Shown piece by piece: positions 1 to 21,935 of a stretch of 64,000 nucleotides of DNA. Location of the stretch: positions 1 through 64,000 of the forward strand of contig JANNWY010000236.1 in the NCBI GenBank assembly GCA_031409335.1, written 5' to 3'. A program made the translations under genes and the position numbers. The stretch is from Chthoniobacteraceae bacterium (GTDB taxonomy: Bacteria > Verrucomicrobiota > Verrucomicrobiia > Chthoniobacterales > Chthoniobacteraceae). The notes below the pieces were generated by a model. It was not told where the DNA came from. It worked only from the letters and a program-made list of their open reading frames with translations, and ran no database searches. The number at the start of each line of letters is the position of its first letter. Positions within the stretch are counted from its first letter, which is position 1.

Positions 1-3000
1 ATGTCGTAAGTCGTGACGGAAAGATTGTTCGTCCCGATCGTGTCACTGCCATCGAGCGATAGCAGAATCTGCCCGGCGGAGAACGCCTGCCCGCCAAGCG
101 TCGTCGCGCTTTCCACGAGAGCAAGGCTGCGGATCTTCTGCCCATTGCCGATACCCGCGCTCGTGCCATCGATGAACTCCGTGAGCGTGCCGCCGGTCGG
201 ATTCGTCGCCATCGTCGTCGGCTGAAAGCGCGACACGTCCCTTTCGTAGGTGGCAGATGAGAGCGCGAGCAGGAAGTCACCCGCCTGGAGAGTCGTCCCA
301 CCGACCGTCACCGCTGACTCGACTAGGGCAAAGTCGTTGACGTCGTTACCGGTGTTTCCGGGATTGTTGAGCAGGATGGAGAAGGTGCCCGCCGAATAGT
401 CGCCCACGACGGTTGGGCGGAAGAGCACCACCTGACGGGGCGTCACCGCCACGCCGCCGAGGGTCTCGGTGCCGTCCACCGAGAAGAGGATGTCGCCCGC
501 CTCCAAGGTCACGGCATTGGTCGTTCCGACCGTCACCGAGCGGCGCACGACGTGGAGGCCATTTATGTCGGCATTGCCATCCGCCGCGAAGGTAGCGAGA
601 TCGAAGGCGGCGGAGAAAGTGCCGCCCGTCGTGCCCGGGCCGAGCGCAAGGTTCGGACCGGTGAAGCGGATCGCGGTGCTGTCGATCCAAGTCGTGAGGC
701 CGCCAGCCGTGGCGGTCGCGTTGCCCACACTCGAAATCCACAGCCCGACGCTCTCCCCGACCGTGGCATTGAGGGAAAACTCCGAAGTGTTGTTCAAGCT
801 GCTGGTCGCGGTGGCGGAGATGAATTCGCCGAGCGACACCGCAGCCGTGAACGACGCGGAGAAGCTGGCGTTGCCGCTCCCATCGGTCGTCACATCCATG
901 AAGCCGAGATAGCGCTGGCCCTCGCCGTAGCCGGTGCCATCCGCCGTGGGGCTGGCGAAAAATTCGAGGCGGAAGGTTCCGCTCGCGGTGCTATTGAGCG
1001 TCCCGGCGACAGTCAAAGACGAGCCATCGCGCAAGGCCGCATTGAGCACCGGGAAGTTTTGCCGGTTGTTCGCGCCGCCGTCCACGTCGTTGGCGTCGTT
1101 GGCGGTGACGCCAATCGTGTCGAGGTCGATGCCGAGCGTGGTGTTCGAGTAGATGAGATTGCCCAGCACCGCATGGCCGGTGCCGTTGACGATATCGACG
1201 CCGGCTTTGGTGTTGAAGGCAATCAGGTTGCCGGCACCAGCCACGGTCCCGCCGACGAGGTTGTTGGTCGAACTGTTCTGGATCTGCACCCCGTCGCCGA
1301 CCAGGTTGCCGCGAGGCTGGGTGCCGGTCACATCGGTGCCGATGTAGTTGCCCTGGATCACGTTGTTCGAGGAGTTGATCTCGATGCCTTCGTTGTTCCT
1401 CGAGATGATGTTGCGCGCCGCCACCGTCGTGCCGCCGATCGTGTTGCCGTCGCCGCTGAGGATCGCGAGGCCGACATCAACATTTCCACCGCCGGTCGCA
1501 CCATCCGGGTCGAGGCCGATGATATTCCCCTGGATGACGTGGCCCGTCACGCCGCTGGCCGAGAGGCTGATGCCGTCGTTGCCGCTGTTGGTGACGACGT
1601 TGCCATCGTAGGTGCCGGTTCCGCCGATCCGGGTATTGAGCGCGAAGGACTCGATCCCGTAGAAATTTCCGACGCCGGTCGAACTCGTGCCGGTGGTGCC
1701 GATCCAGTTGCCCGCGATCGTGACGTTGTCGGCCAGATTCTGCACCCGGATCCCGTCGGTTCCAAAGCGGGTGATCATCAGGCTGCGAATCGTGCTACCG
1801 TCGCCTGTCGCGGAGACATTCAGCCCGCTGAATGCCCCACTGGCCCCGTCCAGGCGGATGACCGGCGTGGTGGTGAAATCCGGCTCGGTGCTGCCGTCGA
1901 TGACGAGCGTGCCATTGATGGTCGGCAGCGCCGTGCCGGCCGTGATCGTGTGCGGCCCGACGCCGGCGATGTTGAACAGGATCAGGTCGATGGTGCTGCT
2001 CGCATTGGCCGCGGTGATCGCCTCGCGCAGCGAGATGCCATCCCCGCCCGGCGTGGCGAGGAGCGCCGCCACCGAACTCGTGTCGCCATTGATCGTGTCG
2101 GTCGTATTCGTGACGATGAGCGTCTGATTGACCGTCGTCACATTCCCCGCGAACTCCGAGGTCTCGACGGGATTCCCGGCCGCATCGAGCCGCGTCGCCG
2201 TGGCCGAGATGACCGCACCGACCCCGACATTTGCCAGGATCTCCGTGCCCCAGGTGGCGTTGTTCGTGCCGTCGGTGCGCACATTCACAAAGCCGAGATA
2301 GGTCTGCCCCTCGCCATTGCCCGAGCCATCGCCCGCGGTGTTCGAGAAGATCTCGATGCGATAGAAAGTGTTCGCGATCGAGTTCAGCGTGCCGCCCACG
2401 GCGAGCCGGCTGGCCGCATTCGTCACCGCGCGGGTGAGCACGGGGAAGTTTTGCAGATTGTTCGCGCCGCCGTCGGTGTCGTTCGCGTCGTTGGCCGTGA
2501 CGTTGTTTGCGCCGAGGTCGATGCCGAGGCCGGTATTCGTGTGGATCGTATTGCCAAGGAAGCGATTGCCCACGCCGGCGGTGGTGTCCGCCCAGATGCC
2601 GTCGCCCGCATTGTGGGCGATCACATTTCCCTCGCTCGTGCCGGTGCCGCCGATGGTGTGGTTCGCGGAGCCGTTCCAAATGTAGATGCCGCCGAGGGCG
2701 TTGCCGAGCGCCCCGCTGCCGGTGACGGTGGTGCCGATGTAGTTCCCGCGAATGACGCTCCCACTCGCGGAGCTGTAGATCTCGATGCCATACCCCAGAT
2801 TGCCGGAAATCAGGTTCCGATCCGCGGGCGCGGTGCCACCGACGATCACGCCATCCGCTTTGATAGCGAGCGCCCCGTAGGGTCCGCCGGTGGCGTTGCC
2901 GAGCGCCACCGTGCCGGAGACATCGGTGCCGAGGAAATTGCCGACGATCGTGGAGCCATCGGCGTTGACATCGACCTCGATGCCATTGTCGCCCGCGCCG

Positions 3001-4103
3001 CGGATGACTAGGCCGCGGACCGTGGAGGCGCCCGTCGTCAGGGCGATCGCGTTGAGGTCGCCCGCGCTCACGCCGGCGGCGTTGAGCTCGATGATCGGAC
3101 CTTTGCTGGCCGCGTATCCCGGCTGCGTCGAGCCGTCGATGATGACCGCCTCCGTCACGTCGAGGTTTGCCCCGCTCAAATTGATCCGATACCACGAGCG
3201 CGCCGTGCCCGCCGGGTAGTTCGCATCGAAGTCCGTGATCGCAGCATCCGCCAGCGTCGTGGTCACCGCTGCACTGAAGCCCGCCCCGCCATTGTCCCGG
3301 TAGTAAAAGTGATTCGCGTCGGTGAGCGGGATGTTGAAAGTGATGGTGTCCGTGCCCGCGAGCGCATTGGCATCGAGGATTGCCTGCCGCAGCGAACCGG
3401 CGCCGGAGTTGGCGGTATTCGTGACCGTGAAAGCTGCCAGCACGCTGGACCAGCTCTCCTGGAGCGCGGAGGTGAAGGCAATTCCGGTCGTCGTCTTGCC
3501 GATCCGATAGTCGAGCACCCAGTCGCCACCAAGCGCCGCCGCGCCGGTTTCATTCGCGCTCGCCTCGATGTCCGCCCGCGTCACCGCGGAAAACGCATCC
3601 AGCAACTGCCGCCCCGCCGCCCCGCCCGCGAGATCGCATCCGTAGAAAAGCAGGTCCGCATCTTCGCTCAGCGCATCGCCCCATGCCGCGATGCGATCGC
3701 GATTTTGCTCAAACGCCGCGCCGTCGATCCAGGTCGCCCCCAGCTTCACCGCCCGGTCCGTGCCGTGAGTCACGAAATGAATTGCATCAATGTCGCGCCG
3801 TCCCGCGAGCGCCTCGCTGACCTGCGCGATGCCATCGCGATTCGCATCCAGCATCACCACCTCGAACTCCCGCTGCGCGGAATCCTGCGAAGTCAGATCA
3901 TCGACCAGCTTTTGAAAACCCTCCACGCCCGTATCCACGAACACAATCTCGTGGGCAGCCGCGTCGGCGGCGCTGCTGACTTCCGTGTGCGCCTCGGTCG
4001 TCGCGAAATCATTCCGCATCTCCGGTGCATCCGGGATCGGGACGGTGACGCTGGAGAGGATGCGTTCCTCAAAAGTTTCGAGCAGGAGCGGTCGGCGTGG
4101 CAT
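1..4103 (-). CDS. Giant extracellular protein (3' end beyond window): LEPRxLL-like leader, DUF4347 domain, CSLREA-type motifs and right-handed beta-helix repeats
   Basis: Not in the ORF track because it has no stop in the window. Manual translation from ATG at 4103 gives MPRRPLLLETFEERILSS...EIVFVDTGV...IHFVTHG...LLFYGCDLA...GGDWVLDY (DUF4347), then TVTNTANSGAGSLRQAILDAN and DGISLREAITAAN, repeated GNxIG/NxI beta-helix strands and two GIDL...ANDANDxDGGANNxQNFPVL units; the frame stays open to position 1. Confidence 0.9.
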   Translation of the reverse strand, partial: MPRRPLLLETFEERILSSVTVPIPDAPEMRNDFATTEAHTEVSSAADAAAHEIVFVDTGVEGFQKLVDDLTSQDSAQREFEVVMLDANRDGIAQVSEALAGRRDIDAIHFVTHGTDRAVKLGATWIDGAAFEQNRDRIAAWGDALSEDADLLFYGCDLAGGAAGRQLLDAFSAVTRADIEASANETGAAALGGDWVLDYRIGKTTTGIAFTSALQESWSSVLAAFTVTNTANSGAGSLRQAILDANALAGTDTITFNIPLTDANHFYYRDNGGAGFSAAVTTTLADAAITDFDANYPAGTARSWYRINLSGANLDVTEAVIIDGSTQPGYAASKGPIIELNAAGVSAGDLNAIALTTGASTVRGLVIRGAGDNGIEVDVNADGSTIVGNFLGTDVSGTVALGNATGGPYGALAIKADGVIVGGTAPADRNLISGNLGYGIEIYSSASGSVIRGNYIGTTVTGSGALGNALGGIYIWNGSANHTIGGTGTSEGNVIAHNAGDGIWADTTAGVGNRFLGNTIHTNTGLGIDLGANNVTANDANDTDGGANNLQNFPVLTRAVTNAASRLAVGGTLNSIANTFYRIEIFSNTAGDGSGNGEGQTYLGFVNVRTDGTNNATWGTEILANVGVGAVISATATRLDAAGNPVETSEFAGNVTTVNQTLIVTNTTDTINGDTSSVAALLATPGGDGISLREAITAANASSTIDLILFNIAGVGPHTITAGTALPTINGTLVIDGSTEPDFTTTPVIRLDGASGAFSGLNVSATGDGSTIRSLMITRFGTDGIRVQNLADNVTIAGNWIGTTGTSSTGVGNFYGIESFALNTRIGGTGTYDGNVVTNSGNDGISLSASGVTGHVIQGNIIGLDPDGATGGGNVDVGLAILSGDGNTIGGTTVAARNIISRNNEGIEINSSNNVIQGNYIGTDVTGTQPRGNLVGDGVQIQNSSTNNLVGGTVAGAGNLIAFNTKAGVDIVNGTGHAVLGNLIYSNTTLGIDLDTIGVTANDANDVDGGANNRQNFPVLNAALRDGSSLTVAGTLNSTASGTFRLEFFASPTADGTGYGEGQRYLGFMDVTTDGSGNASFSASFTAAVSLGEFISATATSSLNNTSEFSLNATVGESVGLWISSVGNATATAGGLTTWIDSTAIRFTGPNLALGPGTTGGTFSAAFDLATFAADGNADINGLHVVRRSVTVGTTNAVTLEAGDILFSVDGTETLGGVAVTPRQVVLFRPTVVGDYSAGTFSILLNNPGNTGNDVNDFALVESAVTVGGTTLQAGDFLLALSSATYERDVSRFQPTTMATNPTGGTLTEFIDGTSAGIGNGQKIRSLALVESATTLGGQAFSAGQILLSLDGSDTIGTNNLSVTTYD

Positions 4104-4156
4104 TGGTTTTGATGGGCGCGAAATCGGCGGGATGGGATTTCAATCGCTTTTGAGAA

Positions 4157-4172
4157 AGCAACCGCCGTTCCA
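4157..4172 (-). promoter_or_regulatory. Putative sigma54 (-24/-12) promoter for the DUF4347 giant gene
   Basis: Minus strand reads TGGAACGGCGGTTGCT: GG-N10-GC with TTGC, one mismatch to TGGCACG-N4-TTGCW; ~54 nt upstream of the ATG at 4103. Confidence 0.6.
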
Positions 4173-4201
4173 CCGCCCCCGATCCTGTTACTTTCAGCGC
4201 G

Positions 4202-7200
4202 TCAATATCCACTCGCCGTCCCCTGCAATCCGAGCATCTCCCCGCCGTATTTCACGTTCCCGAGTTGCAGCGGATTTTCGAGCCCGAGCCCTTGCAGCAA
4301 CGGTGCGGGCCGCATCCCGAGCAGCGCGTTCATTTGCGCCCCGGTGAAGAAATGGCCGGGATTCAGCGCGGGCGAAAAGTAAGTGCGCAGATTGTAGCCC
4401 GTGCCGTCGGCGATACTGTAAGGCGCGGGGATTTCGGTGATGCGCACGCTGCTCGGCACATCGCGGATCGTCGAACTCGGGAAGGTCGCCAGCCAGTTTC
4501 CGCCCGCATCGACCATCACCGTTTGCTCGCCGATGGTCACGCCACGCGCATTCACCAGTGAGATGAAAAGCGTCGCACCCGGATCGGCCTCGCCGCTGTA
4601 AATCGGCGCTAGCGGCAGCAGGGGCAGGCGATAAATTTCTGGCTCGCCGCCGTAGTCGTAAAAGCCAGGGCGCGATCCGCCGCTGAAGTCGTTGAAGGAA
4701 TCGAACGCAAACACGAAGCCAGCCGCACCCGGCTTCACGCCCGTGAGATCGAACGCGCGATTGTTCTCCGGCGTCGGATCCTCAAAATTCCCGAACTCAT
4801 CCACGATCGTGACGGGATTCAAAATCTGTCCACCGTCCGGCACCTGCTCGACGATGACACTCACCGAGAGCTGGAATGTTTCGCCAGGCCGCACCGTCCC
4901 CAGATTCCACACCACCTCGCCATTCACCAGTTTCCCGCCATGCGATGCCGAGACAAATTTTACTCCCGGCGGCAAGGTATCGCGCACGGTCACTCCCCCC
5001 GCCGCCTGATCGCCCGCGTTTCCACCGCTGACCGAATAGGTCACGGTATCGCCCACCGTCGTGGTCGTGAGATTGTCGGTCTTGAAAATGTATAGGTCTG
5101 GCGTGGCGATCACCTCGTCCGTGTCGCGCGCCGTATTGTTCCCGGGCGTCGGATCGGGTCCCGAGCGTCCGGAATCCACCACCGTCACGATATTCGTGAA
5201 CGACTCGGACCCGCCGGGAATCTGCGCCTTCACCCGCGCCGTGATGGTCAGTGTGATCGTCTGCGCATCCGACCCGGCGAGGACGCCAAGGCTCCATCGG
5301 ATCGTGCCAGTCGCCGCGTCGAACACGCCGCCATTCGACGCGCCAAGGAAATCCAGCACGTCCGTCGGGAAACGATCCGTGACGAGCACGCCGTCCGCGT
5401 CCTGGAGCGCGGGATTGCGGATCGTGATGGTGTAAGTGAGCGCCTGGCCGGGTCGCACCTGCGCGCGCCCGTCGGTCTTCGTCACCACGAGATCGCTCGG
5501 CGTGCGCTCCCCGAAAAGGTAGTCCGTCGCATCGCTCCCACCGCCAATGCCGATGCCGGACGTCACATCATTCACGTTCGCATTTCCACCCACGCTCCCG
5601 ACCGTCTCACGCCCATCGCGGAAGCCAGAAGGCTGTATTTCGGTAAGGATGTAAGTTCCCGCAAGAAGACCGCTGAAGCTATAGCTGCCGTCCGCGAGCG
5701 TTGTGGTCGTGAGCGAGACAGCGCCACCATTCACGTTCACGCCGGTTAGTGTAATTTGCGCACCCTCGATCACAGGCTCCAACCCATCAAACAACCCATC
5801 GTTATTGATGTCGTGATAGACGATGCCAGCCAGCGATCCCGTGATCTCCCCGAAATCAACCGGAGGAGCAATGCTGCCAATCGCCAGCGACACCGGCACC
5901 GAATTCGCCGTGCTCGACCCATAAGCACCCGGCTGCGTCTCGACGACGGTATAGTCACCGGCGAGCAGATTGGTGAAGGTGTAAGTCCCATTCCCTGCCG
6001 TCGTGGTTGTCGCGACGACCTGGCCATTGGTGTCGATCAATTGCAGCGTCACTCCGCCGATGCCAGTCCCGACTTCATCAAGCGTCCCATTCCGATCCGT
6101 ATCGACAAAGACCGTGCCACCCAGCGAAAGGCCATTTTCACCGAAATGGTAGTCCGTCCCATTCGCCGCCGCTGGCAGCGTGATCGTTCCGATCGTGTCC
6201 GGGCTCACCAGCGATCCGCCACTTGTGCCGATCGTATCCGCTCCATCCAAATACTCGGCGGGCTGCGTCTCAGTGATCTGGTAAACACCCGCGGGCAGGT
6301 CGGCAAAAAGATAAGTCCCATCCGTCCCAGTCGTCCCATTAAGAATAACGACACCGCCATTCACATCCGTCCCGGTAAGATCGACCGTCACCCCCGCAAG
6401 TGGGCTGTCACCTGCCGAAAACACGCCATTCCCATCCCGGTCCAAATAGACCAGCCCGCTCAACGAACCGGCAGTCTCACCAAAGTCGATCACGCTCACG
6501 CCATCGGCGATGACGTTGATGCCGGGCACGCTATTCGGCGTGCTCGACCCATACGCAATCGGCTGGGCCGGCTGCCGGACCTGATAGCCTGCGCCCGGCG
6601 CGATGCCAGTGAACGAGTAACTACCATCTGGATTCGTCGTCGTCGTCGCGATCACCGCGTTGGTGTTATCGAGCAGGTTGATCACAATCCCGAACAGCCC
6701 GCGCTCGCCGCTATCGAGCGTCGTATCCCGATCGCGGTCGATGAAGACCGTGCCGATGATCGTGCCGGTGCCAGGAGGCGTCGCGAGCGTTTCGCCGAAG
6801 TCGTATCCCGTCGCGTCAAATGCCGCGCCAAGGCCGATCCCCGCGAACTGATCGTCCGTCAAAACCAGCACCCCTGCCGTGCCAACTGACTCAAAGCCAT
6901 CGTTGTAAAGCGCCGGTTGCGTCTCATCGAGCGTGTAGTTCCCCGAAAGCAGGCCAGTGAAGGAATAAAGTCCATCCGAACCAGTCGTCGTCGTCAGCGA
7001 AATCGCCGCGCCGCTGGCATCGGTGCCAGTGAGCGTCACGGTCGTCCCACCGATCCCGCTTTCGCCAGTGGCAAAGCTGCCGTCGAGATTGCTGTCGAGA
7101 TAGACCAGGCCCGCGATGCTCGAAGTCGTCTCCCCAAAGTTCACTCCAGTCCGACCCGTGACTGGCACGTTCACCGCGATGGTATCCGGCGTGCTCGATC

Positions 7201-13200: not shown

Positions 13201-16200
13201 AGCCAGTGCGTTCGCCGGTATCCGCGCCGGGCAAGCCCGTGTTTGCGGAGCCGGTCGGATTGCTGGTCGTGCCGTTCGTTCCAGGCAGGCTCGTGGTCGT
13301 CGCGACGGCAGTGTTGGTGATCGTTTGTCCGGGCGTCACGCTGTTGTTGACGGTCGCCGAGTAAGTCACGGTAACGCTCCCACCGGCGAGGATCGTATCG
13401 ATCGCATAGCTCACCGAGTTACCCGCGGAGTTATTCACGATGCCAGCCACGCCGCCCGCGCTGGCGACCGCGACGCTGCCTAGATTCAGCGTGAGAAAGG
13501 CCGGGAGCGCGTCCTGAAGCACCGACTCGAAGGCGGGCGTGACGTTATTGCCGGTGCCGTTGGTGAGGGTCACGGTGAAATTCACCGTGTCGCCCGCATC
13601 GCCCGAGGATGGCGATACACCCTTGGAAAGTGTCAGCGCGGATTCCGCGATGACGATGCTCGTCGAGTTGGAAACCGGACCGGTCAGGCTGCCATTGACC
13701 GATGCCTGATAGGTGTTGGTCCTGGTGTCCCCCGCGTCGTTGCTGCCAGCCACGCTGTTATCGACGAGCGCGTTGAATTCCAGCACGGCGAATTCACCGT
13801 TCGCATCGCTCTCCGAGTTCGTGAGGTTTCCTAGGACAAAAGTCGGATCGGTCCCCGTCGAAAATGCACCGCCGAGAATCGCGCCGCCGGGCAGCACAAA
13901 GGTGGGTGAGATGCCGGAAACCGTCGTCTCATCGCCGACCAACTCGAGGCCCGCGCCGGTGAGCGTGGACGACGTGAGCGAGCTGCCGGAGGTGGTGACA
14001 AACGCCAGCGTCGTCGTGCCATCGTTGATGTAGGTCAGCCCGGTCGGGAGCGAATCCACGAGACGGAAATTGGTTGCGCCGCCCTCGGGCAAGCGCGTCA
14101 CCAGCCGGTAGCGAATCACTTCACCGATCGCCGCGCGTTCGGTGCCCGCGACGACCGTGGTGAATGCTTCCGACGTGCTCACGAGCGACTTCGTCGGTGT
14201 CGGCGTCGCGATGGTGACGGTCGCCGCGTCCGTTAGGTCTGTCGTGGTATGATCCGGTCCCGATTCCGCGCCCGCATAGTTAAACACCGTCGCAGTATTT
14301 GTTAGCGTCTGGCCGGGCTGGACGGTATTGATCGCGACTAGGTCATAGGTCAGTACGAGCAGGTTGCGCCCATCGGTCGCGTCGTACGCGTCGAGCGAAC
14401 CCGGATCGGGATTCGTCGAACCGGGATCAGTCAGATCGATGCCACCCGCGGCGTCAAAGAGACCCGCGCCGATATTGGAAAACGCGAGCGCCGCACCCGT
14501 GCCATCGACGACGCGCAGATTCAACCCCGCGCCGCCGGGGATCGCGAATCCCGCTGGCAGCGTGTCGCGCAGCCGCACATCGAATGCGCCGTTCAAACCG
14601 CTGCCCGTGTTTTCCACGACGATCGCAAAGGTCACGATGTCGCCCGCGTCGATGCCGGAGAGATTGCTGTTGATCGGCGTCGCGGCGAGGCCGTTCGAAT
14701 GGATCGTGCCCGCAAAGCGCGCGCCCGCCGTGCCCGGCGCATTGAAGGCCAGCGGTCCGACGGCACCTGGCGTAAACGTGGCGCCCGCCTTGTCCGTCGC
14801 GACCACCCCCTTGCGCACATTCAATACCGGCTCGGTGAGCTGAATCTGAATGATCGCGTCCGCCGTCGCGGTGCCGGCATTCGTCGTTCCTTCGCCAACC
14901 CGCGCCTGATTCGTCAGGAAAAGCCCGTCCGCAAAGGGAGCGGCGGACGCGGTGACAGTAAGCAGCAGGTCCACCGTGGTCGGCTGGTTCAGCGCGCTGT
15001 CGAAGTTCGCATAGCTCAGCGAGAGGCTGTTGGAAACGCCGTCGGTGCTCAGCGTCGGCACCAGGCCGGAGTAAGCGCGGAAGGTATCCGAAGGCCCAAA
15101 TTTCACATGACCGGCGATGGGTGCAGCGATGCTCTTCACGTCGTCGAAAATCGTGAGTGTCGTCGCGTCAAAAATCGGCAGTGGCAGGAAATCGCTGATC
15201 GCGAGACCTTCCACATCGCTCGTCGGCAGCGTGTAAGTCAGCCGATAAGTCACCGTGTCGCCCGGCGCGATACTTACCGGCGAGCCAAATGCCGTGCTGC
15301 CATTGATCGCGTAAATCGATTTCGTCAGCGTCCCTTTGACAATCACCACGCCCGCCGCGCTCGTGTCTTCCTCGGACTGGCCAGTCGGCGTCGTCGCATC
15401 CACGACGGAAAGTAGATCGCCCGCGATGGAAACATTGTTGGAAAGGGTATCGCCCTGGTCCACGGACGGATCGCCGGAGGGAAAGTTGAAGTCGAAGTTA
15501 TCCTGGATCGTCGTGCGGAAAGTGATCGTCGCTGTCGTCCCTGGAGTCAATGCAGGGGCCGATTGCGGAAGCGGGCCGCCGGTCCCGCCGTTGGGCACAT
15601 TGCCGCCGAGCAGCTTTCCGTCGAGGCCACGCGTTACGAGTTCATTGGAAATACGAAACGTCAGCGGAGTCGTCCCATTGATCGCGCTTTGCGCGCCGAG
15701 TGTGAAGTTTGCCGCGTTAAAAGTGCTGCTCGAAGAAGCGCCGTGTTCGTTCACGGTCAGCGTCGGCGTAAAGCCCGCGACGAACTTCTGGCCATCCGAA
15801 AAGACATCGCTCGCGATCAGATTTTGAAACGCGAAGTAGTCCGAAATCTGGAACGTCATCGTGTATTCCAGCGTATCGCCGGGACTCGCGCCGACCGCGC
15901 CCGTGTCCGTCACGACTGTCACACCCTTTTGAATCGCGATGGCTTTGTCCGTCAGCGTGTGATCGTTCGCAGTGTCATTGCTCACCACCGGGCCGGTGGC
16001 ATCGCGACTGTCGATGGGCGCCCATGTTCCCTGCGCGCTCGCGTCATTCACCGAAGTCACGTCGTTGCCCGAGAGAGCGTTGATCACAGGGTTTCCGAGC
16101 GAATTCGCCCGTGGCACATAGAACGTGAAAAGCATCGTCGCATCGTTCGTCGCCGTCGTCCCCGTCACGCTCGCAAACTCCCGCGTCAGCGTGCCACCGG

Positions 16201-17032
16201 GTGTGAGCGTGGATGGCGTCGCGATGGCAGTCGTGCCCGACGCCGTGCCGCGGATCGTGGTGCTGTTCACACTGACGAATTGCAGGTTGTTCGGCAGCGC
16301 ATCGCTAAGCTGGAGGCTGGTCAGCGTCTGCCCCGCCGCGATGTCCACGGTGATGAGATATTGCCTGGTAAAGTTCGGTCCCGACGCCGTCTCGTCCTCT
16401 GGACCGACATAGGTTTTCGTCAAAGTGAAAAGGCTCGGCGTGATTGTTGTGCTATTGAGCGTGCCGAGCAGGCTTGGGTCGGTCGTCGGATTATTCAGCG
16501 CGTCATTGCCATACTGAAAACCCGCGCGCGCCTGGACGTTCAGCGGCGTGCTGACATCCGCCAGGTTACTCAGTTGCGCGGAGAAATTGATTGCCGCCTG
16601 CGGCTGATTGGGCGTGAAGCTTCCAAAGGGTAGCTGGAAGACGACCAGTTGATTGCCGGGCGTTCCCGTGACCACCAGCGGCGCGCCTGTATTCGTGCGC
16701 GCATACGGGTGGGTCGCATTTCCTCCGGCATCGAAAGTAAGCACCGTCGTTGTAACTGCTGTCCCAAGATAGGTCGCGCTACCCGGCACGAAGGTGAGCC
16801 CATCGTCCACCCCGGCCCCCGCGCCATCTGCGCCGGTCGCCGGGAGATACACGTCGATATAAGGCCCGAAGCCAGTGTCCGCCGGATCCGCGTTGTCGAA
16901 CGTCGCGGTGAGCGCGACGACTTCGCCGATGAGCGGCTTGGCCGGCGCGGAGATGGAAACGGCGGGAACCGCGCTGCAAAGGATCCGGTCTTCGATCGTC
17001 TCGAGAAGGAGTGAACGGCGGGACGTGGGCAT
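4202..17032 (-). CDS. Giant adhesin-like protein (~4,276 aa): LEPRxLL-like leader, isopeptide-forming (fimbrial D2-type)/DUF11 domains, 17 SdrD B-like (CnaB) repeats, two DUF11 domains and a non-repeat C-terminal domain
   Basis: ORF 4202..17203; the likely start is M58 at 17032 (MPTSRRSLLLETIEDRILCS), since the upstream extension overlaps the tolC start. Repeated K..IGE.I.Y.L...PEG, GDTVTYT...D.LP and SG.V(F/Y).D.D.DG...G.Y.F..L..G.Y...ETQP...NFGE motifs. Confidence 0.9.
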   Translation of the reverse strand: MPTSRRSLLLETIEDRILCSAVPAVSISAPAKPLIGEVVALTATFDNADPADTGFGPYIDVYLPATGADGAGAGVDDGLTFVPGSATYLGTAVTTTVLTFDAGGNATHPYARTNTGAPLVVTGTPGNQLVVFQLPFGSFTPNQPQAAINFSAQLSNLADVSTPLNVQARAGFQYGNDALNNPTTDPSLLGTLNSTTITPSLFTLTKTYVGPEDETASGPNFTRQYLITVDIAAGQTLTSLQLSDALPNNLQFVSVNSTTIRGTASGTTAIATPSTLTPGGTLTREFASVTGTTATNDATMLFTFYVPRANSLGNPVINALSGNDVTSVNDASAQGTWAPIDSRDATGPVVSNDTANDHTLTDKAIAIQKGVTVVTDTGAVGASPGDTLEYTMTFQISDYFAFQNLIASDVFSDGQKFVAGFTPTLTVNEHGASSSSTFNAANFTLGAQSAINGTTPLTFRISNELVTRGLDGKLLGGNVPNGGTGGPLPQSAPALTPGTTATITFRTTIQDNFDFNFPSGDPSVDQGDTLSNNVSIAGDLLSVVDATTPTGQSEEDTSAAGVVIVKGTLTKSIYAINGSTAFGSPVSIAPGDTVTYRLTYTLPTSDVEGLAISDFLPLPIFDATTLTIFDDVKSIAAPIAGHVKFGPSDTFRAYSGLVPTLSTDGVSNSLSLSYANFDSALNQPTTVDLLLTVTASAAPFADGLFLTNQARVGEGTTNAGTATADAIIQIQLTEPVLNVRKGVVATDKAGATFTPGAVGPLAFNAPGTAGARFAGTIHSNGLAATPINSNLSGIDAGDIVTFAIVVENTGSGLNGAFDVRLRDTLPAGFAIPGGAGLNLRVVDGTGAALAFSNIGAGLFDAAGGIDLTDPGSTNPDPGSLDAYDATDGRNLLVLTYDLVAINTVQPGQTLTNTATVFNYAGAESGPDHTTTDLTDAATVTIATPTPTKSLVSTSEAFTTVVAGTERAAIGEVIRYRLVTRLPEGGATNFRLVDSLPTGLTYINDGTTTLAFVTTSGSSLTSSTLTGAGLELVGDETTVSGISPTFVLPGGAILGGAFSTGTDPTFVLGNLTNSESDANGEFAVLEFNALVDNSVAGSNDAGDTRTNTYQASVNGSLTGPVSNSTSIVIAESALTLSKGVSPSSGDAGDTVNFTVTLTNGTGNNVTPAFESVLQDALPAFLTLNLGSVAVASAGGVAGIVNNSAGNSVSYAIDTILAGGSVTVTYSATVNNSVTPGQTITNTAVATTTSLPGTNGTTSNPTGSANTGLPGADTGERTGSLVNANDLRTTAQATVTIHPIVPVKSIVATSEASTSGANATIGEVVRYRLQVQVPESDTLTNFALNDALPTGLTFLNDGTAYVAFVGNLGGLTSSTLAGAGLFVSGNQASVASITPAFVLPGGAISGGPFTSGTDVVFNLGTIDNADRDADQEFVIIEFNAIVDNSVAGNNQAGNVRGNSFFASLGGVQSGPSSNTSNVTIVEPSITNLTKGVSTATADAGDTVTYTVTYSNTGATAYEARLTDAIPAFMTLNVASVSVTLGGGAAGVTNATAGSLLDVTIGTIPTGGTVSITYTATLNANVTPAQVLTNGAQLVYTTLPGANGTLGNPTGSNTPGVAGGNTGERTGAGGLNDYVATTSTNITVPNGSIAKAIAATSVSATTGADVSVGETITYTLTVTLPEGSSANTLLVDTLPAGLSYVAGSAIVDTTGFGGTAALVSATTGAGSVTFDLGTITVTNDNNAANNSFTVTFTALVQNLVGNEGLLPGQTSLPNSATLQVNSGAVLPSNTVFATVVEPQLQITKTLLNPDTTVDAGTAMDYQVVIQHTGNSTGPAFDLALADALAAIGLNINLGSLAITPAYNGAAVGYLNVTNSSDASGLSLAFDRLDLGDTITITYSATVGASPAAGSTVTNTASLSAYDSLPGVGGRAGTPVNSGTSFTINTNTISGYVYRDLDNNALFDESSANGLSGVPVRLLFAGSNGSFGDGDDVTFNTTTALDGSFQFTGLRPGNYRLIEVTQPVGLLDGQEQPGDVGNPFGGSIGAIGTDLSSGIVIPADSNETQPNYNFGELPPAALGNFIWQDANGNGRQDGAEPGVNGVTVTLTGANDLGAIAPIVTTTAGGGLYNFGNLRPGSYQVAFTDLPPGAVFTIDNSSVATAATDSDADPGTGITGNITLVAGQLDTTVDAGIYVPAVVGDRVWHDMNGNGLQDGSEPGIVGATVTATWAGVDGVLGNGDDVILPSTLTGANGIWNIGNLPPGNYSIDVSNLPDGLTAATYDLDGTGTPDTVTLTLATGANRSDIDFGYRGTGTLGDFVWNDNNGDGVQDANEPGIPDAAVTLTWFGQDATLGGGDDVIYNTLTDAAGGYQFTGLPAGDFAVSVNPATLPGNLTSTFDLDGIGTPNTTAVSLIPGETRDDADFGYRGDASVGDTVWYDLDADGVVDLDEPGIDGVTVTLLFGGLDGNLATAGDNITYTTTTDASGTYLFEGLPVGIIGGGNNFRVTTSGVPAVYNSPTFDRDGIGSANTSAFQLNAAQSRTDLDFGYRGNSTLSGFVYTDASNDGVFQSGGSVPELAIAGVTVTLTGEDFFGNPIIRSTITGINGAYSFIGLIAGDYAVTQQPQTSAPLDVYLDGKETAGTAGGDAFSVDDVISSITLGSGVASTGNNFGELVPSSLAGSVFIDANGDGVRGVGESGIENVTIDLMGTDDLGTPVSLTVVTDVNGNYLFSNLRPGTYTITETQPLGYFDAGDAVGTVGGTLADDEVSAIALAPGQNGTAYNFGERRTSLSGTVFIDKGADGFLDPEDSGRIVGVTLTLRDSLNAIVATVQTDASGNYLFGDLIAGDYTIEQTQPNGYGSSSPNSLLLTIPVDGLTDVNFGETTGSLSGLVYLDADRTGGFTAGDTGLAGVQVRLTGTDANGAAVSRTTTTAGDGTYLFSDLVAGTYTLTETQPLAYRDGAETLGSLGGTLVPTDAMNAIVLPAATDGIDYQFGELVNLPPGRGAITGTVFADLDKGGTLDAGENGLAGVTIRLRNAAGIVVATTATDAAGAYRFSNLAPGDYTVVETQPAAYGSSTPDVLNPVTVTAGVITADQNFGETYGSLAGSVYVDANNDGSIDIGETPVAGVTVTLTGTDVNGAAVSRSTITAVDGSYFFGNLLTGTYRLAEAQPASYADGIDAIGTSGGVLGSDVFSTIGLGGGIDAIEYNFGERGVTLSGKVFVDANRNAVLNPGETGLDGVTLQLRDSSGSVVATTTTAPDGTYSFTNLAAGNYSVIEAQPNGYGSSTPDTIAVNVPVTGRTGVNFGETTSSIAGLVYLDSNLDGSFATGESGIGGTTVTLTGTDASGAAISLTTTTGSDGLYSFTGLLSGNYTLDETQPALYNDGFESVGTAGVLVLTDDQFAGIGLGAAFDATGYDFGETLATPPGTGTIIGTVFIDRDRDTTLDSGERGLFGIVINLLDNTNAVIATTTTNPDGSYSFTGIAPGAGYQVRQPAQPIAYGSSTPNSVPGINVIADGVSVIDFGETAGSLSGLVYLDRDGNGVFSAGDSPLAGVTVDLTGTDVNGGVVILNGTTGTDGTYLFADLPAGVYQITETQPAEYLDGADTIGTSGGSLVSPDTIGTITLPAAANGTDYHFGENGLSLGGTVFVDTDRNGTLDEVGTGIGGVTLQLIDTNGQVVATTTTAGNGTYTFTNLLAGDYTVVETQPGAYGSSTANSVPVSLAIGSIAPPVDFGEITGSLAGIVYHDINNDGLFDGLEPVIEGAQITLTGVNVNGGAVSLTTTTLADGSYSFSGLLAGTYILTEIQPSGFRDGRETVGSVGGNANVNDVTSGIGIGGGSDATDYLFGERTPSDLVVTKTDGRAQVRPGQALTYTITIRNPALQDADGVLVTDRFPTDVLDFLGASNGGVFDAATGTIRWSLGVLAGSDAQTITLTITARVKAQIPGGSESFTNIVTVVDSGRSGPDPTPGNNTARDTDEVIATPDLYIFKTDNLTTTTVGDTVTYSVSGGNAGDQAAGGVTVRDTLPPGVKFVSASHGGKLVNGEVVWNLGTVRPGETFQLSVSVIVEQVPDGGQILNPVTIVDEFGNFEDPTPENNRAFDLTGVKPGAAGFVFAFDSFNDFSGGSRPGFYDYGGEPEIYRLPLLPLAPIYSGEADPGATLFISLVNARGVTIGEQTVMVDAGGNWLATFPSSTIRDVPSSVRITEIPAPYSIADGTGYNLRTYFSPALNPGHFFTGAQMNALLGMRPAPLLQGLGLENPLQLGNVKYGGEMLGLQGTASGY

Positions 17033-17147
17033 GGAGTTAGGCCGGAGTAAGTGTATGGGTGGTGGCTGTCTGCGGGCCGCGCTTCCCGGTGTGGTTGGCG
17101 CGAGTGGTAGGCAATTTTTTCCGCATTTCCGCGTTTGAGAAAGCATC

Positions 17148-17163
17148 TGGCATACCAACCGCT
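17148..17163 (+). promoter_or_regulatory. Possible sigma54 promoter for the tolC-secA-like-MFP operon
   Basis: TGGCATACCAACCGCT: correct GG-N10-GC spacing and TGGCA -24 box, but the -12 box is CCGC rather than TTGC; ~32 nt before the ATG at 17196. Confidence 0.4.
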
Positions 17164-17195
17164 TTAGCAGCGGCGACCCACAACCAATCCAACCA

Positions 17196-18989
17196 ATGCC
17201 CATCCCAAACAGCTACACGACCTTTCTCGCGTATCTCGCCTGCACCAGCCTTGCCCTTTCTGTGGAACCGCCTCCGCTGCCCAGCGATCCGAGTCCGGAC
17301 GAGCCCTCGTTGCTCGATCAATACAACTCCGAAATCGCAAAGATCGGTCGCGGTAATCGCACTTTTGCGAAGAAGACCGCGGCCACGATCCCCAACGATT
17401 TTTCACCGTGGTGGATTCGCGGCCAGCGCAACACCCTTGGCGACGATTCCCGTTCGCAAGGCATCAGCGTCGATGATCTCTATGTCCGCGCGATTCAGCA
17501 TTCCAATCAGATCAAAGTCTTCAGCGACCTGCCGCTGATCCGTGAGACTGGCATTCAGGAAGCCAGGGGCGAGTTCGACACGAACGCTTTTCTCCAGGGA
17601 AAGTTCGACCGCAAAAATGATCCCGTCGGCAACACGCTCACCACGGGCGGTGCCTCGCGTTTCCGGCAGGATGAGTGGTCGATGGAGGCTGGCGCGAAAA
17701 AGAAATTCGTGACCGGTACCGAGGTCACGCTCTCGCAGGAACTCTCCCGCACGGACAACAACTCGGTCTATTTCGTCCCAAATCCGCAGTCGAAAGCGAC
17801 GCTCTCGCTGAATGTCGTGCAGCCACTGCTCAAAGGCGCGGGCGTTTCCTACAACCGCAGTACGCTGCGCATCGCGCGCATCGACTCCGAAATCGCGATG
17901 AGCGAATTCATCCGCCAGAGCGAATCGCATCTGCTCGAAATCACGCGCACCTATTGGGCGCTTTACGCGGCGCGCGTCACTTATTTGCAAAAGGCCAAAC
18001 TCATCGATGAAACCGCGCGCGTGGCCGATGAACTCAAGGCCCGCCAGAAAGTCGATGCCAAGCAATCGCAGCTCTTCCGCGCGCAATCCGCGCTCGCCTC
18101 GCGTCGCGCCGATCTCGTCCGCTCCGAAGCCGCGATCCGCAATGCGCAGGATCGGCTGAAGGCGCTCGTAAACGATCCCGGCCTGCTCGCCTCCGCCGGT
18201 GCCGAGCTCGTGCCACGCGATCGGCTCATCCTTTCGAGCATGCCCGTCGATACCCAATCCGCCGCGCAAATCGCGCTGCAAAACCGGCCCGAAATCAGCC
18301 AGGCATTCCTGCAACTGCGGGCTGCCACCATTCGCGAAAACATGCAGCGCAACGAACTCCTGCCCGAGCTGAATCTCGTGCTGCAAGGCTCGCTCGGCGG
18401 GCTCGACAGCGGCGACTACGGCAGCGCTTACGAGCGCCAGTATGGCAAGGGCACGCCGGGCTGGGGCGCAGGATTTGTATTCAGCTTTCCGCTGGAAAAC
18501 AACATCGGACGCGCGCGCCACGAGCGCCGCCAGCTCGAACTCCGCCAGCAGGTCGATCAGGTCCGCACCACGATCGACACCGTCCTACTCGAAGTGAAAG
18601 TGAGCGCCCGCGAGGTCTCGACCGCGTATCGCGAGACGCAGGCGAAATTCGCCGCCGTCAAAGCCTTCACCGAAGACATCGACTCGCTCCAGGCCCGCCG
18701 CGCCGTGCAGACCGCGTCGCCCGCGCCGGGGGTCGATGAATCCTCGCTCACCGCGAGCTACCTCGACACGCTGCTCGACAGTCAGGATCGCCGCTCGAAC
18801 TCCGAAGAGGAATTCATCCGCGCCGCCGCGAACTACCAGATCGCGATCGTGAATCTCGAACGCGCCAAGGGTAGCCTGCTGAACTATTCCGCCGTCGATG
18901 TCGTTCGCACAAAGGACGACCGCGGCCTGCCGTTGCTGCGCTTGGAGAAAGGCGGACGCGATGGGAAATCCAACGTGTCGGGCAAATAG
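17196..18989 (+). CDS. TolC family outer membrane efflux/secretion protein
   Basis: Signal-peptide-like N-terminus, QPLLKGAG, ALQNRPEI, ELLPELNL, FSFPLEN motifs and long helical segments typical of OEP repeats. Confidence 0.88.
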   Translation: MPIPNSYTTFLAYLACTSLALSVEPPPLPSDPSPDEPSLLDQYNSEIAKIGRGNRTFAKKTAATIPNDFSPWWIRGQRNTLGDDSRSQGISVDDLYVRAIQHSNQIKVFSDLPLIRETGIQEARGEFDTNAFLQGKFDRKNDPVGNTLTTGGASRFRQDEWSMEAGAKKKFVTGTEVTLSQELSRTDNNSVYFVPNPQSKATLSLNVVQPLLKGAGVSYNRSTLRIARIDSEIAMSEFIRQSESHLLEITRTYWALYAARVTYLQKAKLIDETARVADELKARQKVDAKQSQLFRAQSALASRRADLVRSEAAIRNAQDRLKALVNDPGLLASAGAELVPRDRLILSSMPVDTQSAAQIALQNRPEISQAFLQLRAATIRENMQRNELLPELNLVLQGSLGGLDSGDYGSAYERQYGKGTPGWGAGFVFSFPLENNIGRARHERRQLELRQQVDQVRTTIDTVLLEVKVSAREVSTAYRETQAKFAAVKAFTEDIDSLQARRAVQTASPAPGVDESSLTASYLDTLLDSQDRRSNSEEEFIRAAANYQIAIVNLERAKGSLLNYSAVDVVRTKDDRGLPLLRLEKGGRDGKSNVSGK

Positions 18990-20838
18990 CGCGGCTTCGG
19001 ACCTGCGGGGAGAGCATTCATCTCCGAGCTTCTTTCACCGCTTTCTCCGCGAATCGCCGGTCGATGCGACCAAGCGTCACCTCGGGCGGCTGCGCGATCT
19101 GACGGATGCGCGCCTGCGCGAACTCACCGCTGCGCGACCGTCGAATGCCGAAGCCATCGCGCTCATTTCCGAATCCGTCCGCCGCACCCACGGCCTCGTG
19201 CCGTACGATGTGCAGCTCCATGCCGGTCATGTCCTCGCCGCGGGTCATCTCGCGGAAATGGCCACGGGAGAAGGCAAGACGCTCGTCGCGCTGCTGCCCG
19301 CGTTTTGCTTCGCGCTCGAAGGCCGCGGCGTCCACGTCGCGACCGTGAACAGCTATCTCGCCGAACGCGATTGCGAGTTCGCGCGCCCGGCATTCGAGCG
19401 GCTCGGGATGACGGTGGGAATGCTGGTCGAGAAAGCATCGAAGCCGGAAAAGAATAAGTCCTATGCGTCCCACGTGACCTATGGCGTCGGCACAGAATTC
19501 GGATTCGACTACCTCCGCGACCAACTCGCGATCCGCGCACTCGGCGACGTGCGCCCGCGCTTCCACGAACTCCTCGCCGGCCGCACCCAGCCAAGGCCCG
19601 ACACTGTCCAGCGCGGCCACGCCTTTGCCGTCATCGACGAGGCCGACAGCGTCCTCATCGACGAGGCACGCAGCCCGCTCATCGTCGCCACTGGCGCGCG
19701 CGAGCCGCACGAAACGCCCCAGGTCTTTCACCTCGCGGATCGCATCGCCAGGGGATTGCGCGCCGACGAAGACTTCGAGCGCGCCCCACATTCCCAACGC
19801 CTCACGCTCACGCACGAGGGCACTCGCCGCGCGCTCGCGCAACTCACCGACGCCGTGCTCCCGCACCTCCAGCGGATGTGGCAGGGCTACGTCGAGCAGG
19901 CTCTGCACGCGCGGCACAATTTGCGGCGCGATGTGCAATACGTCATCGCCGAAGGCAAGGTCGTCATCGTCGATGAATTCACCGGTCGCCCCTGCCCCGA
20001 CCGCACCTGGCGCGATGGCATGCACCAGGCCGTCGAAGCCAGCGCGGGTGTCACCGTCACCGAGGAAAATTCCTCCGAGGCCACCATCACGCGGCCCGCG
20101 TATTTTCGGCTCTACGATAAGATCTGCGGCATGACCGGCACCGCGCGCGAAGCCGCCGCCGAACTCCGCGAATGCTACCGGCTCACGAGCACCGTCATCC
20201 CGCTCCGCCGCCCTTCGCTTCGCGAAATCCTGCCCGATCGCATCTTCACCAACCGCGCGCAAAAACTCGATGCCGTCGCCCGCGAAATCGCAAAACGGCG
20301 GGCCGCCGGACAGCCCGTGCTCATTGGCACGCGCACCATCGAAAACAGCGAAGCCCTTGCCGAAAAACTCACCGCGCTCGGCAATCCATTCCGGCTGCTC
20401 AACGCGAAGCAAAATGCCGAGGAAGCCGCGATCGTCGAGCAGGCGGGCGAACCCGGAGTCGTGACCATCGCCACAAACATGGCCGGGCGCGGCGCGCACA
20501 TTCCCGTTCCTGGGGAAAGCGTGCGCGCTGGCGGACTGCACGTCATCGGCCTCGAGCGCCACGAATCCGCGCGCATCGACCGCCAGCTCATCGGCCGCTC
20601 GGCCCGGCAAGGCCAGCCCGGCAGCGCGCAGTTTTTCCTCTCGCTGGAGGACGATTTGATTGTTCGGCATTCGCCGAAAATCGCCGCGCTGTCGGCCGAT
20701 GAAAACGGCGAGCTGCCCGGCGCGACTGCCGAAATTTTCCACAAAATCCAGCGCAAGGTCGAATCCGAAGACCGCCAGCAACGGCGCCAGCTCGCGCACT
20801 ACGACCGGTGGCTGGATGAACTGAAACAAGCTTTATGA
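18961..20838 (+). CDS. Accessory SecA-like DEAD ATPase (short, ~625 aa, C-terminally truncated)
   Basis: SecA motifs MATGEGKT, VNSYLAERD, FGFDYLRD, IDEADSVLIDEA, DEFTGR, GMTGTA, TIATNMAGRG, ERHESARIDRQLIGRSARQG, LSLEDDL; ends ~60 aa after LEDDL. Start placed at ATG 18961, overlapping the tolC end. Confidence 0.9.
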   Translation: MGNPTCRANSAASDLRGEHSSPSFFHRFLRESPVDATKRHLGRLRDLTDARLRELTAARPSNAEAIALISESVRRTHGLVPYDVQLHAGHVLAAGHLAEMATGEGKTLVALLPAFCFALEGRGVHVATVNSYLAERDCEFARPAFERLGMTVGMLVEKASKPEKNKSYASHVTYGVGTEFGFDYLRDQLAIRALGDVRPRFHELLAGRTQPRPDTVQRGHAFAVIDEADSVLIDEARSPLIVATGAREPHETPQVFHLADRIARGLRADEDFERAPHSQRLTLTHEGTRRALAQLTDAVLPHLQRMWQGYVEQALHARHNLRRDVQYVIAEGKVVIVDEFTGRPCPDRTWRDGMHQAVEASAGVTVTEENSSEATITRPAYFRLYDKICGMTGTAREAAAELRECYRLTSTVIPLRRPSLREILPDRIFTNRAQKLDAVAREIAKRRAAGQPVLIGTRTIENSEALAEKLTALGNPFRLLNAKQNAEEAAIVEQAGEPGVVTIATNMAGRGAHIPVPGESVRAGGLHVIGLERHESARIDRQLIGRSARQGQPGSAQFFLSLEDDLIVRHSPKIAALSADENGELPGATAEIFHKIQRKVESEDRQQRRQLAHYDRWLDELKQAL

Positions 20839-21620
20839 ACTCCGAACTTCCAAACCTGAAACCGCAACGCCGAACGACACGTCAGCGCGCGCGCATTCTT
20901 CATTGGATGTTCGGCGTTGGGGTTTGGGCGTTCGGCGTTTCCGCGATTGCGGAAGACATTCTTGGCTACACCGAGCCCTACAAAATCATCACCGTTTCCG
21001 CATCCGAACCCGGCGTGCTCGCGGAATTGCTCGTGGAGGAGGGCGTGAACGTGAAAAAGAACCAGGTGCTCGCGCGTCTCGATGTCGCCGCCCTCAGCGC
21101 CGAGCTGGAAATCGCGAAGGCCGAGGCGCAGCTCCAGGCCACGCGCAAACAGCGCCTCGCCGAACTCGCGCAATCCAGCCGCGCCACCACCGACGAACTC
21201 GACAAGGCAAAAACCGATCTCGTCATCAAGGAAGCGCAGGTCCGCAAGACCGAGGCGATGATCGAATCCCGCACGATGCGCAGCCCGGTCGATGGCATCG
21301 TCACCGAAATCAAACGCGATCCGAGCGAGAGTGTTTCCGTCGCCAATCCGCACGTCCTCACCGTCGTGCAAATCGACAAACTGACCGTGAATCTTTTCCT
21401 GCCGCCAAAGATCGCGCTCCAGCTAAAACCCGGCGGCACAGCGCTGCTGCGTTTTGAAAACGGCGATTCGCGCGTCCCCGCGACAATCGAATTCATCAGC
21501 CCCGTCACCGACTCCGCGAGCGGCACCGTGCGGGTGAAATTCGCGATCGAAAACACCGCGCGCCAGCACCGGGCCGGAGCCCGCTGCACCCTCGCGGATG
21601 AGCCGAAGGCAGGGAGTTGA
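20835..21620 (+). CDS. Membrane fusion protein / periplasmic adaptor (HlyD/RND MFP family)
   Basis: Split lipoyl domain (GVLAELLVEEG..VKKNQVLARLD ... MRSPVDGIV), coiled coil, and FISPVTDSASGTVRV; ATGA overlap with the secA-like stop. Confidence 0.88.
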   Translation: MNSELPNLKPQRRTTRQRARILHWMFGVGVWAFGVSAIAEDILGYTEPYKIITVSASEPGVLAELLVEEGVNVKKNQVLARLDVAALSAELEIAKAEAQLQATRKQRLAELAQSSRATTDELDKAKTDLVIKEAQVRKTEAMIESRTMRSPVDGIVTEIKRDPSESVSVANPHVLTVVQIDKLTVNLFLPPKIALQLKPGGTALLRFENGDSRVPATIEFISPVTDSASGTVRVKFAIENTARQHRAGARCTLADEPKAGS

Positions 21621-21662
21621 CCGGAATGGTGTTTCGGATGCGCGATCGTCGCGCCGCTGGCC

Positions 21663-21847
21663 AGCCTGAAAGGCTGAAACAACAAAGCCCAGGGCAACGC
21701 CCTGGGTATCCCGGAAAAACAACTCCAGCCCTGAAAGGGCGCGACACCACCGATTCGCGCGGCTTGTCTCGCCCTTGCAGGGCTACCACCTCAACGCACC
21801 TTCCCCAGGGCGTTGCCCTGGGCTGTGCTGTCGCAGCCTTTCAGGCT
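21663..21847. repeat. Nested palindromic REP/MITE-like element
   Basis: AGCCTGAAAGGCTG (21663) / CAGCCTTTCAGGCT (21834); AGCCCAGGGCAACGCCCTGGG (21686) / CCCAGGGCGTTGCCCTGGGCT (21804); AGCCCTGAAAGGGC (21727) / GCCCTTGCAGGGCT (21771). Lies between convergent genes. Confidence 0.85.
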
Positions 21848-21935
21848 TATCGCGTCGGCGGCGAATCGAGCGGCAAACTGCTTTTTCAAAAACCGCCTTC
21901 ACTCAATGCTATTCCGAGCTGACCGCGCTTTTTCC

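Follow-up and report, generated by a model that had tools for sequence, protein, structure and literature searches.

A short SecA paralogue, TolC and an M50 protease-adaptor fusion in a split five-gene module: a candidate ABC-free export route for leader-bearing giant proteins in a Chthoniobacteraceae bacterium

We analyzed a 64,000-nucleotide stretch of DNA, here called the window (positions 1 to 64,000 of the forward strand of contig JANNWY010000236.1, assembly GCA_031409335.1), from a Chthoniobacteraceae bacterium of the phylum Verrucomicrobiota, and focus on a three-gene operon that lies head-to-head with two giant genes. On the forward strand, the operon encodes a TolC-family outer-membrane factor (17196..18989; 597 amino acids (aa); Pfam OEP, E 1e-25), a short paralogue of the SecA ATPase (18961..20838; 625 aa), and a short membrane fusion protein (MFP), or periplasmic adaptor (20835..21620; 261 aa; HlyD_3), with a single N-terminal hydrophobic stretch. 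The longest open reading frame (ORF) of the SecA paralogue, 18898-20838, would give 646 aa; because most relatives measure ~620-630 aa, 18961 is the likely start. Coordinates of the ORFs place the overlaps at 29 nt between tolC and the secA-like gene and at 4 nt between the latter and the MFP gene. On the reverse strand, a 163-bp divergent region (17033..17195) separates tolC from giant protein 1 (4202..17032; 4,276 aa), which is adhesin-like, with DUF11 and isopeptide-pilin domains, 17 SdrD_B stretches and one Cys. Beyond it lies giant protein 2, of which the N-terminal 1,367 aa (1..4103, reverse strand; leader, DUF4347 at E 4e-50, beta-rich repeats) remain open at the contig start; via a 141-nt exact overlap it extends onto contig C278, for a total of 10,948 aa. 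These ORF coordinates bear out the layout proposed by a first-pass annotation made from the letters of the window, namely three overlapping genes head-to-head with a 4,276-aa gene and a second giant beyond.

The two giants have a leader in common, RRxLLLETxE[DE]RILxS. That of giant 1, RRxLLLETxEDRILCS (16970..17032, reverse strand), is a variant below the LEPR-XLL model (NF012209), and that of giant 2 (4047..4103, reverse strand), of the MPRRPLLLETFEERILSS type, is a predicted export tag. In fact, neither window leader matches the LEPR-XLL model at E values up to 10, and a genome search with this model gave only a giant on contig C275. The window leader looks like a clade-specific variant. At their other end, both giants carry a C-terminal domain of ~180 aa (4205..4744 in giant 1, reverse strand) that is also common to the giants of relatives (L014:3232-3765, L030:2-322); the two copies match at 66% over 175 aa. 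This domain has no Pfam family, one weak NCBIfam match (E 0.017) and no usable Atlas match, and is possibly a retention or anchoring module.

Scanning the window reveals no ATP-binding cassette (ABC) or resistance-nodulation-division (RND) gene after the MFP gene; the next gene encodes a convergent DUF3352 protein. A palindromic repeat resembling repetitive extragenic palindromes, with relatives on 28 contigs, lies 3' of the operon (21651..21860). At this position, most relatives carry a convergent gene for an M50 peptidase fused to an MFP domain (M50-MFP), which in the source genome is represented on contig C307. We examined 19 related loci, 18 from a search for tolC relatives and one from the complete genome G059; relatives with a 67-89% identical TolC are, where named, Chthoniobacterales of the Verrucomicrobiota. 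The order tolC-secA-MFP is complete in 15/19 loci, the other four stopping short of the MFP gene, and the arrangement is therefore not chance. Of the 14 loci having upstream DNA, 13 show a relative of the giant genes in divergent orientation, L037 being the exception. The proposal that the three genes are kept together thus holds, in identical order and with leader-bearing giants adjacent.

Five loci break off ahead of the MFP gene or directly behind it and were set aside, which leaves 14 informative for M50 linkage. A convergent C307-type M50-MFP orthologue (56-78% identical) directly follows the MFP gene in ten of them, lies 7.7 kb off on the same contig in L024, and is found in the genome, outside the fetched locus, for L033 and L037; adjacent, near or elsewhere, 13/14 genomes have it. 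The complete genome G059 encodes a single M50-MFP, beside tolC-secA-MFP.

The source genome encodes three M50-MFP fusions, on contigs C275, C201 and C307. The last of these contigs carries only an M50-MFP whose N-terminus resembles a RiPP (peptide made by ribosomes and modified after translation) recognition element (RRE), together with a GAF-like MFP; searched at E 1e-5, it gives no relative of tolC, secA or the short MFP gene. A quick tree built from 49 rows puts the C307 M50-MFP inside the clade of operon-linked orthologues (Shimodaira-Hasegawa-like approximate likelihood ratio test, SH-aLRT, 100), with the C275 and C201 paralogues standing apart. We considered the C275 or C201 M50 as the window's partner and rejected both, as they are 28-29% identical to the linked G059 orthologue versus 64% for C307. 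From orthologue linkage in relatives, the single M50-MFP of G059 and the clade placement, we conclude that the window operon forms a single five-gene module with the C307 pair, split over two places. Consequently, the inner-membrane component that the first-pass annotation reported missing is indeed absent from the operon, which has no ABC or RND gene, but not from the genome: an M50-peptidase/HlyD partner of the kind it suggested seeking is found on C307. As for the second member of the pair, the C307 GAF-like MFP has HlyD domains and no Pfam GAF match, and is 27% identical to its C275 paralogue; a 48% relative of that C275 protein, in L107, does give a GAF match (E 5e-10).

One might instead propose that TolC, MFP and short SecA suffice, with SecA replacing the ABC transporter, and the operon does stand alone here and in L021, L033 and L037, with no M50 gene after it within the fetched DNA. 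The M50-MFP orthologue in 13/14 genomes argues against this. So does a sample of 100 other genomes of the phylum, in which full-length short SecA amounts to eight genes in seven genomes, 8/8 directly following an M50-MFP gene (in an eighth genome, G069, short SecA is cut by the contig end). Moreover, the short SecA has no hydrophobic segment above threshold and so gives no pore, and we find the three-part form hardly credible.

In the AlphaFold model of the C307 M50-MFP (mean predicted local distance difference test, pLDDT, 88; 122 rows), three strands and three helices make up the N-terminus, next to a helical membrane region and an MFP domain. Residues 14-101 match the lasso-peptide B1 RREs solved with leaders (6JX3, Z 10.2, root-mean-square deviation 2.8, 84 aligned; 5V1U, Z 10.0). 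In the wide VIA structural search that gave these RRE matches, the same residues resemble PqqD (Z 8.9); RseP (Z 9.6) and SpoIVFB (Z 9.3) are matched by the membrane part, and MFPs by residues 441-703, with Z values of up to 15.4. These Z values are moderate. Foldseek with the whole model gave only MFPs among the matches listed, and the profile of the protein against solved structures matched adaptor and biotinyl domains, the best 60 of 66 matches including neither an RRE nor a protease. Among the Atlas neighbours of the N-terminus are PqqD clusters, in which 23-31% of members carry PqqD; an M50-MFP paralogue has a weak PqqD match (E 0.004), and several relatives are named PqqD family in RefSeq. 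As modeled, the N-terminus of M50-MFP folds like leader-binding RREs.

The protease part appears intact as well: HExxH, N300, P301 and D306 are invariant in 122/122 M50-MFP rows, and HExxH in 49/49 wider rows. Among NCBIfam models, the best match is the daptide RRE-protease NF041824, to which residues 27-402 align at E 1e-46 with 159.4 bits, below its cut-off of 300. Daptide precursors are described as carrying ELExMEAP, with the leader removed by an RRE-dependent protease (10.1101/2023.03.08.531785), and the M50 protease EpeP is described as thought to both cleave and export its small peptide (PMC10885120). By analogy, we predict that M50-MFP binds and cuts the leader of the giants.

The distribution of leaders and proteases agrees in outline. 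Among 40 other genomes of the family, seven have the window-type leader: six also carry a complete C307-type M50-MFP, on the contig of the leader, and G193 carries a contig-end M50-MFP fragment whose type was inferred from its score. The remaining 33/40 have neither window-type leader nor C307-type M50. The window-type leader thus travels with the C307 M50 clade; we do not rely on Fisher tests of this co-occurrence, which non-independence of kin inflates. Across the phylum sample, M50-MFP is present in 27/100 genomes and the LEPR-XLL model matches ten, eight being the genomes with M50 and adjacent short SecA; in each of the eight, the frame is 4,500 aa or longer. Two weak matches, in 38-aa and 138-aa frames of genomes where M50-MFP is absent, were set aside.

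A second leader type, IEPLExRIAPA, has 16 matches in the source genome. It occurs at least twice in 19/40 family genomes (a non-C307 M50-MFP being present in 17 of these 19) and is absent (zero leaders) from three family genomes with C307-type M50-MFP only. Like the window leader, it is below the LEPR-XLL model; a single genome of a relative can have as many as 47 matches. Proteins that begin with it number at least 16 and measure 570-5,600 aa (C57, C59, C153, C223, C226, C261 and others; L049-L061). We note two further paralogous modules in the source genome. One (C275:1-21236) consists of a GAF-type MFP, M50-MFP and short SecA, followed by the LEPR-XLL giant, which continues on C210 via a 115-nt overlap (frames of 4,617 and 6,743 aa). 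The other (C201:1-4692) consists of MFP, M50-MFP and TolC; there is no SecA on this 4.7-kb contig and no fourth SecA_DEAD in the genome. The C201 module is a candidate route for the IEPLExRIAPA proteins.

Upstream of the giants we find sigma-54-like elements. One of -24/-12 type (4157..4172, reverse strand) is, by its sequence pattern, the predicted promoter of giant 2, and two overlap in the divergent region (17142-17157 on the reverse strand and 17148-17163 on the forward strand, the second facing tolC). The pattern GG-N9-TGCT, which was fixed only after the sequences had been viewed, stands 57-144 nt upstream of 12/14 giant starts, against a simulated mean of 0.41/14; it is present in the window (both giants), L015, L021-L025, L027, L035, L036 and L038. 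An rpoN gene was found on contig C212. Regulatory roles are common for site-2 proteases and GAF domains, and these putative promoter elements would also suit a signaling role, in which a trans-envelope sensor built from the GAF-like MFP, site-2 protease and TolC frees a peptide or regulator controlling the sigma-54-type giant genes. A sensory role for the GAF protein has been suggested before (Kamneva 2015, PMC4452313). The loci viewed contain no conserved anti-sigma factor or regulator, and signaling leaves unexplained the RRE, the clade-specific leader, the SecA clamp and the exit of giants without a classical signal; we judge it improbable.

The short SecA carries the Pfam domains SecA_DEAD, P-loop_SecA and SecA_PP_bind and lacks SecA_SW, which is also absent in 120/120 listed relatives. 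It aligns to residues 63-606 only of B. subtilis SecA and, in its structure model, consists of NBD1, PPXD, NBD2 and one long scaffold helix at the end; alignment and model agree that the wing domain, two-helix finger and C-tail are absent. Scores of 564 bits against the canonical SecA equivalog (cut-off 800) and 416 bits against the SecA2 model (cut-off 930) place it in neither family. In 121/121 aligned rows there is no variation at Walker A, DEAD, motif VI, Q85 or F182, nor at the positions that correspond to R327 and to Y329 (the latter Trp here); N178 is replaced by Thr in 120/121. We rejected a secA pseudogene, since 121/121 rows end by the query's last column, a shared end, with motifs intact. 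The genome encodes three SecA_DEAD proteins, of which the canonical one resides on contig C83, separate from the paralogue (the first-pass annotation had suggested looking for it), and a second short one on C275. In G059, the canonical secA (L040:5299-8273) lies ~20 kb from the module, with an apparent frameshift near residue 754 that is possibly an assembly error.

Structures of SecA-SecY are reported to have the clamp moving the substrate, with the two-helix finger inserted into SecY and static between states (Dong et al. 2023, PMC9926265); the same study describes PPXD and the long helix as likewise contacting SecY. A kept clamp and a lost finger fit a motor uncoupled from SecY, though contact with SecY would still be compatible. 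No secY2, asp or gtf genes occur among the window neighbours scanned (the rest of the genome was not searched for a second secY). A two-step route would have the short SecA work with the housekeeping SecYEG to bring the giants to the periplasm, with M50 as leader peptidase and the MFPs and TolC serving the outer-membrane step only. SecY is the described partner of SecA (PMC9926265), and the LEPRxLL giants of Chlorobium chlorochromatii are reportedly periplasmic when the partner cell is absent (2026 preprint). Two observations speak against this route: the SecY-inserting finger and the wing domain are missing in every aligned row, as the alignment stops at B. subtilis residue 606, and short SecA is absent from many modules. 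In addition, TolC-MFP ducts are known to receive cargo from an inner-membrane partner. We consider the two-step route unlikely.

Further loci broaden the picture. Among 30 plasmid records with an M50-MFP match, we viewed six; 6/6 adjoin large surface-type genes and have no ABC exporter annotated in the operon. Two of the six contain short SecA, annotated 'prepilin peptidase' (L042:17177-19093, L044:18029-20053), a label that may conceal the module from keyword searches. DUF3467 or SapC genes lie inside the modules of L042-L044, and small 'tail fiber protein' genes lie beside two SecA-less modules (L045:17125-19232, L046:1-1850). In the phylum sample, 14 SecA-less loci (12 genomes) mostly have the order MFP, GAF-like MFP, M50-MFP, their neighbours only partly scanned for other ATPases; some follow a large gene, for example one for a DUF4347 protein starting ELEKRILFD.

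These loci also bear on whether a conventional ABC type I system elsewhere exports the giants, the module merely trimming or anchoring them. In the source genome, an HlyD-like gene on C93 adjoins a 756-aa ABC-motif ORF, and a second HlyD-like gene lies on C224. At 114.6 bits each, both HlyD-like genes are below the cut-off; with them, an ABC route keeps a small probability in this genome. The window MFP itself scores 42.9 bits against the type I HlyD model TIGR01843 (cut-off 208.65). Neither giant contains an RTX (repeats-in-toxin) nonapeptide (0 in both), 5/5 module-bearing genomes (two single-contig) gave partial type I HlyD matches of 49-66 bits or none, and the giants adjoin the module and not ABC genes in all six plasmid loci viewed. 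We therefore give the ABC route little credence.

In sum, we consider it probable, reasoning largely by analogy, that both giants leave the cell by leader-guided, ABC-free, TolC-linked export through a five-part machine. In a first step, the RRE-fold N-terminus of M50-MFP would bind the LETxEDRIL leader. The M50 site, with its zinc ligands intact, would then cut the leader at or within the membrane. The membrane segments of M50-MFP and of the GAF-like MFP would form the inner-membrane passage, and the three MFP domains would dock on TolC. The short SecA clamp would grip the unfolded chain and move it N-terminus first, without SecY. In the last and weakest step, the giants would serve as adhesins on the cell surface; the C-terminal domain common to both is perhaps a stop or anchor.

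Several observations weigh against such a machine. No precedent was found for an M50 domain passing a 1-MDa chain. In the ribose-binding motif Va of the short SecA, D492 is His in 119/121 rows (20497-20499 in the window, residue 513 from start 18961), possibly altering nucleotide handling; in the C275 paralogue this residue is still Asp. The genome of L021, the closest relative, gave no M50-MFP; it has operon and giant, and its completeness is not given. Three of the seven leader-bearing family genomes gave rows to the leader alignment, leaving four independent ones, with kinship ignored. Likewise, no M50-MFP was found in G048 (96% complete; 22 IEPLExRIAPA leaders) or G181 (87%; 40). Finally, a search at E 1e-100 gave no short SecA in 19/27 M50-MFP phylum genomes (some canonical SecA was missed at this cut-off too); 5/5 such genomes rechecked with Pfam have a single SecA_DEAD each, and four of the six plasmid loci have no SecA_DEAD on the record (chromosomes not searched), one of them beside a 4,033-aa LEPR-XLL protein.

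Because these 19 of 27 genomes have M50 without it, the short SecA is a branch-specific part and not a universal motor. The conserved core comprises M50-MFP with additional MFPs, in many cases TolC, and a large candidate cargo. The initial idea that a SecA-like ATPase replaces or assists the ABC motor is therefore sustained in that catalytic residues are kept and the locus has no ABC gene, but it does not extend to a general motor. More tentatively, the module may represent a distinct secretion class. In it, a RiPP-style leader reader, a site-2 protease and an adaptor, fused together, would act as receptor, peptidase and inner-membrane channel of a TolC duct; paralogous machines within a cell would sort giant cargo through a private leader code, and a SecA reduced to its helicase-like clamp would be a SecY-independent motor for megadalton chains.

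If true, this would provide an export route for bacterial proteins that are among the largest (the sampled genomes contain frames of 4,500 to 20,000 aa), and a cargo for a locus described in 2015 without one. A SecA working without SecY or a two-helix finger would be a natural test of the clamp-driven translocation model. A ~20-residue leader routing very large proteins to the surface could find use in display; the locus supplies a matched leader/protease pair, and the two further paralogous machines in the same genome allow comparison of specificity.

The locus, and the idea of SecA as ATPase and M50 as pore, have been known since 2015. Kamneva, Poudel and Ward (2015, PMC4452313) describe a locus SecA_DEAD / Peptidase_M50-HlyD / GAF-HlyD / HlyD (+/- OEP), propose these two functions and state that members can be unlinked. 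The window module is that locus, which the first-pass annotation had cited: it has the same five components, if the GAF-like MFP, which gives no Pfam GAF match, is counted as the GAF-HlyD protein, with an extra SecA_DEAD protein without SecA_SW, an M50-HlyD fusion, a stand-alone HlyD plus OEP, and no ABC gene. The main text of that study names no cargo, leader or RRE and does not discuss SecA-less modules. New here are the RRE-like fold, the link between leader and M50 clade, the SecA clamp without finger, and the SecA-less branch. In agreement with the first-pass annotation, which knew of no mechanistic characterization, we found no experimental study of the module in the literature, with subscription journals mostly outside coverage. 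The 2026 preprint places LEPRxLL giants beside tolC and sapC with a recently acquired secA, M50 being absent from the part of its text available, and a preprint on giant genes describes SecA domains fused inside Omnitrophota giants.

Compared with canonical SecA and Gram-positive SecA2, the short SecA shares NBD1, PPXD, NBD2, Walker A, DEAD, motif VI and the clamp residues, but stops after the long scaffold helix and scores below all SecA and SecA2 cut-offs. Similar to daptide MpaP (10.1101/2023.03.08.531785; NF041824), as described there, the C307 protein fuses an RRE to an intramembrane HExxH protease, and the daptide precursor motif ELExMEAP resembles the LETxEDR and IEPLEAR leaders here; unlike MpaP, the C307 protease is fused to an MFP and linked to TolC and giants, with no RiPP enzymes in the loci viewed. 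In type I secretion, N-terminal cleavable leaders are described as going with cargo up to ~10 kDa and C-terminal RTX signals with large cargo (PMC8277102), whereas here N-terminal leaders stand on proteins of 4,000-11,000 aa without RTX repeats. The module is neither classical type I secretion nor accessory Sec. With peptidase-containing ABC transporters (PCATs) and HlyB-HlyD-TolC type I systems it would share a TolC-MFP duct, an inner-membrane leader-handling peptidase and giant adhesin cargo, but it has no ABC domain, an M50 protease with RRE in place of C39, and three MFP-domain proteins. Most likely, the module works like a peptidase-coupled type I exporter made of other parts.

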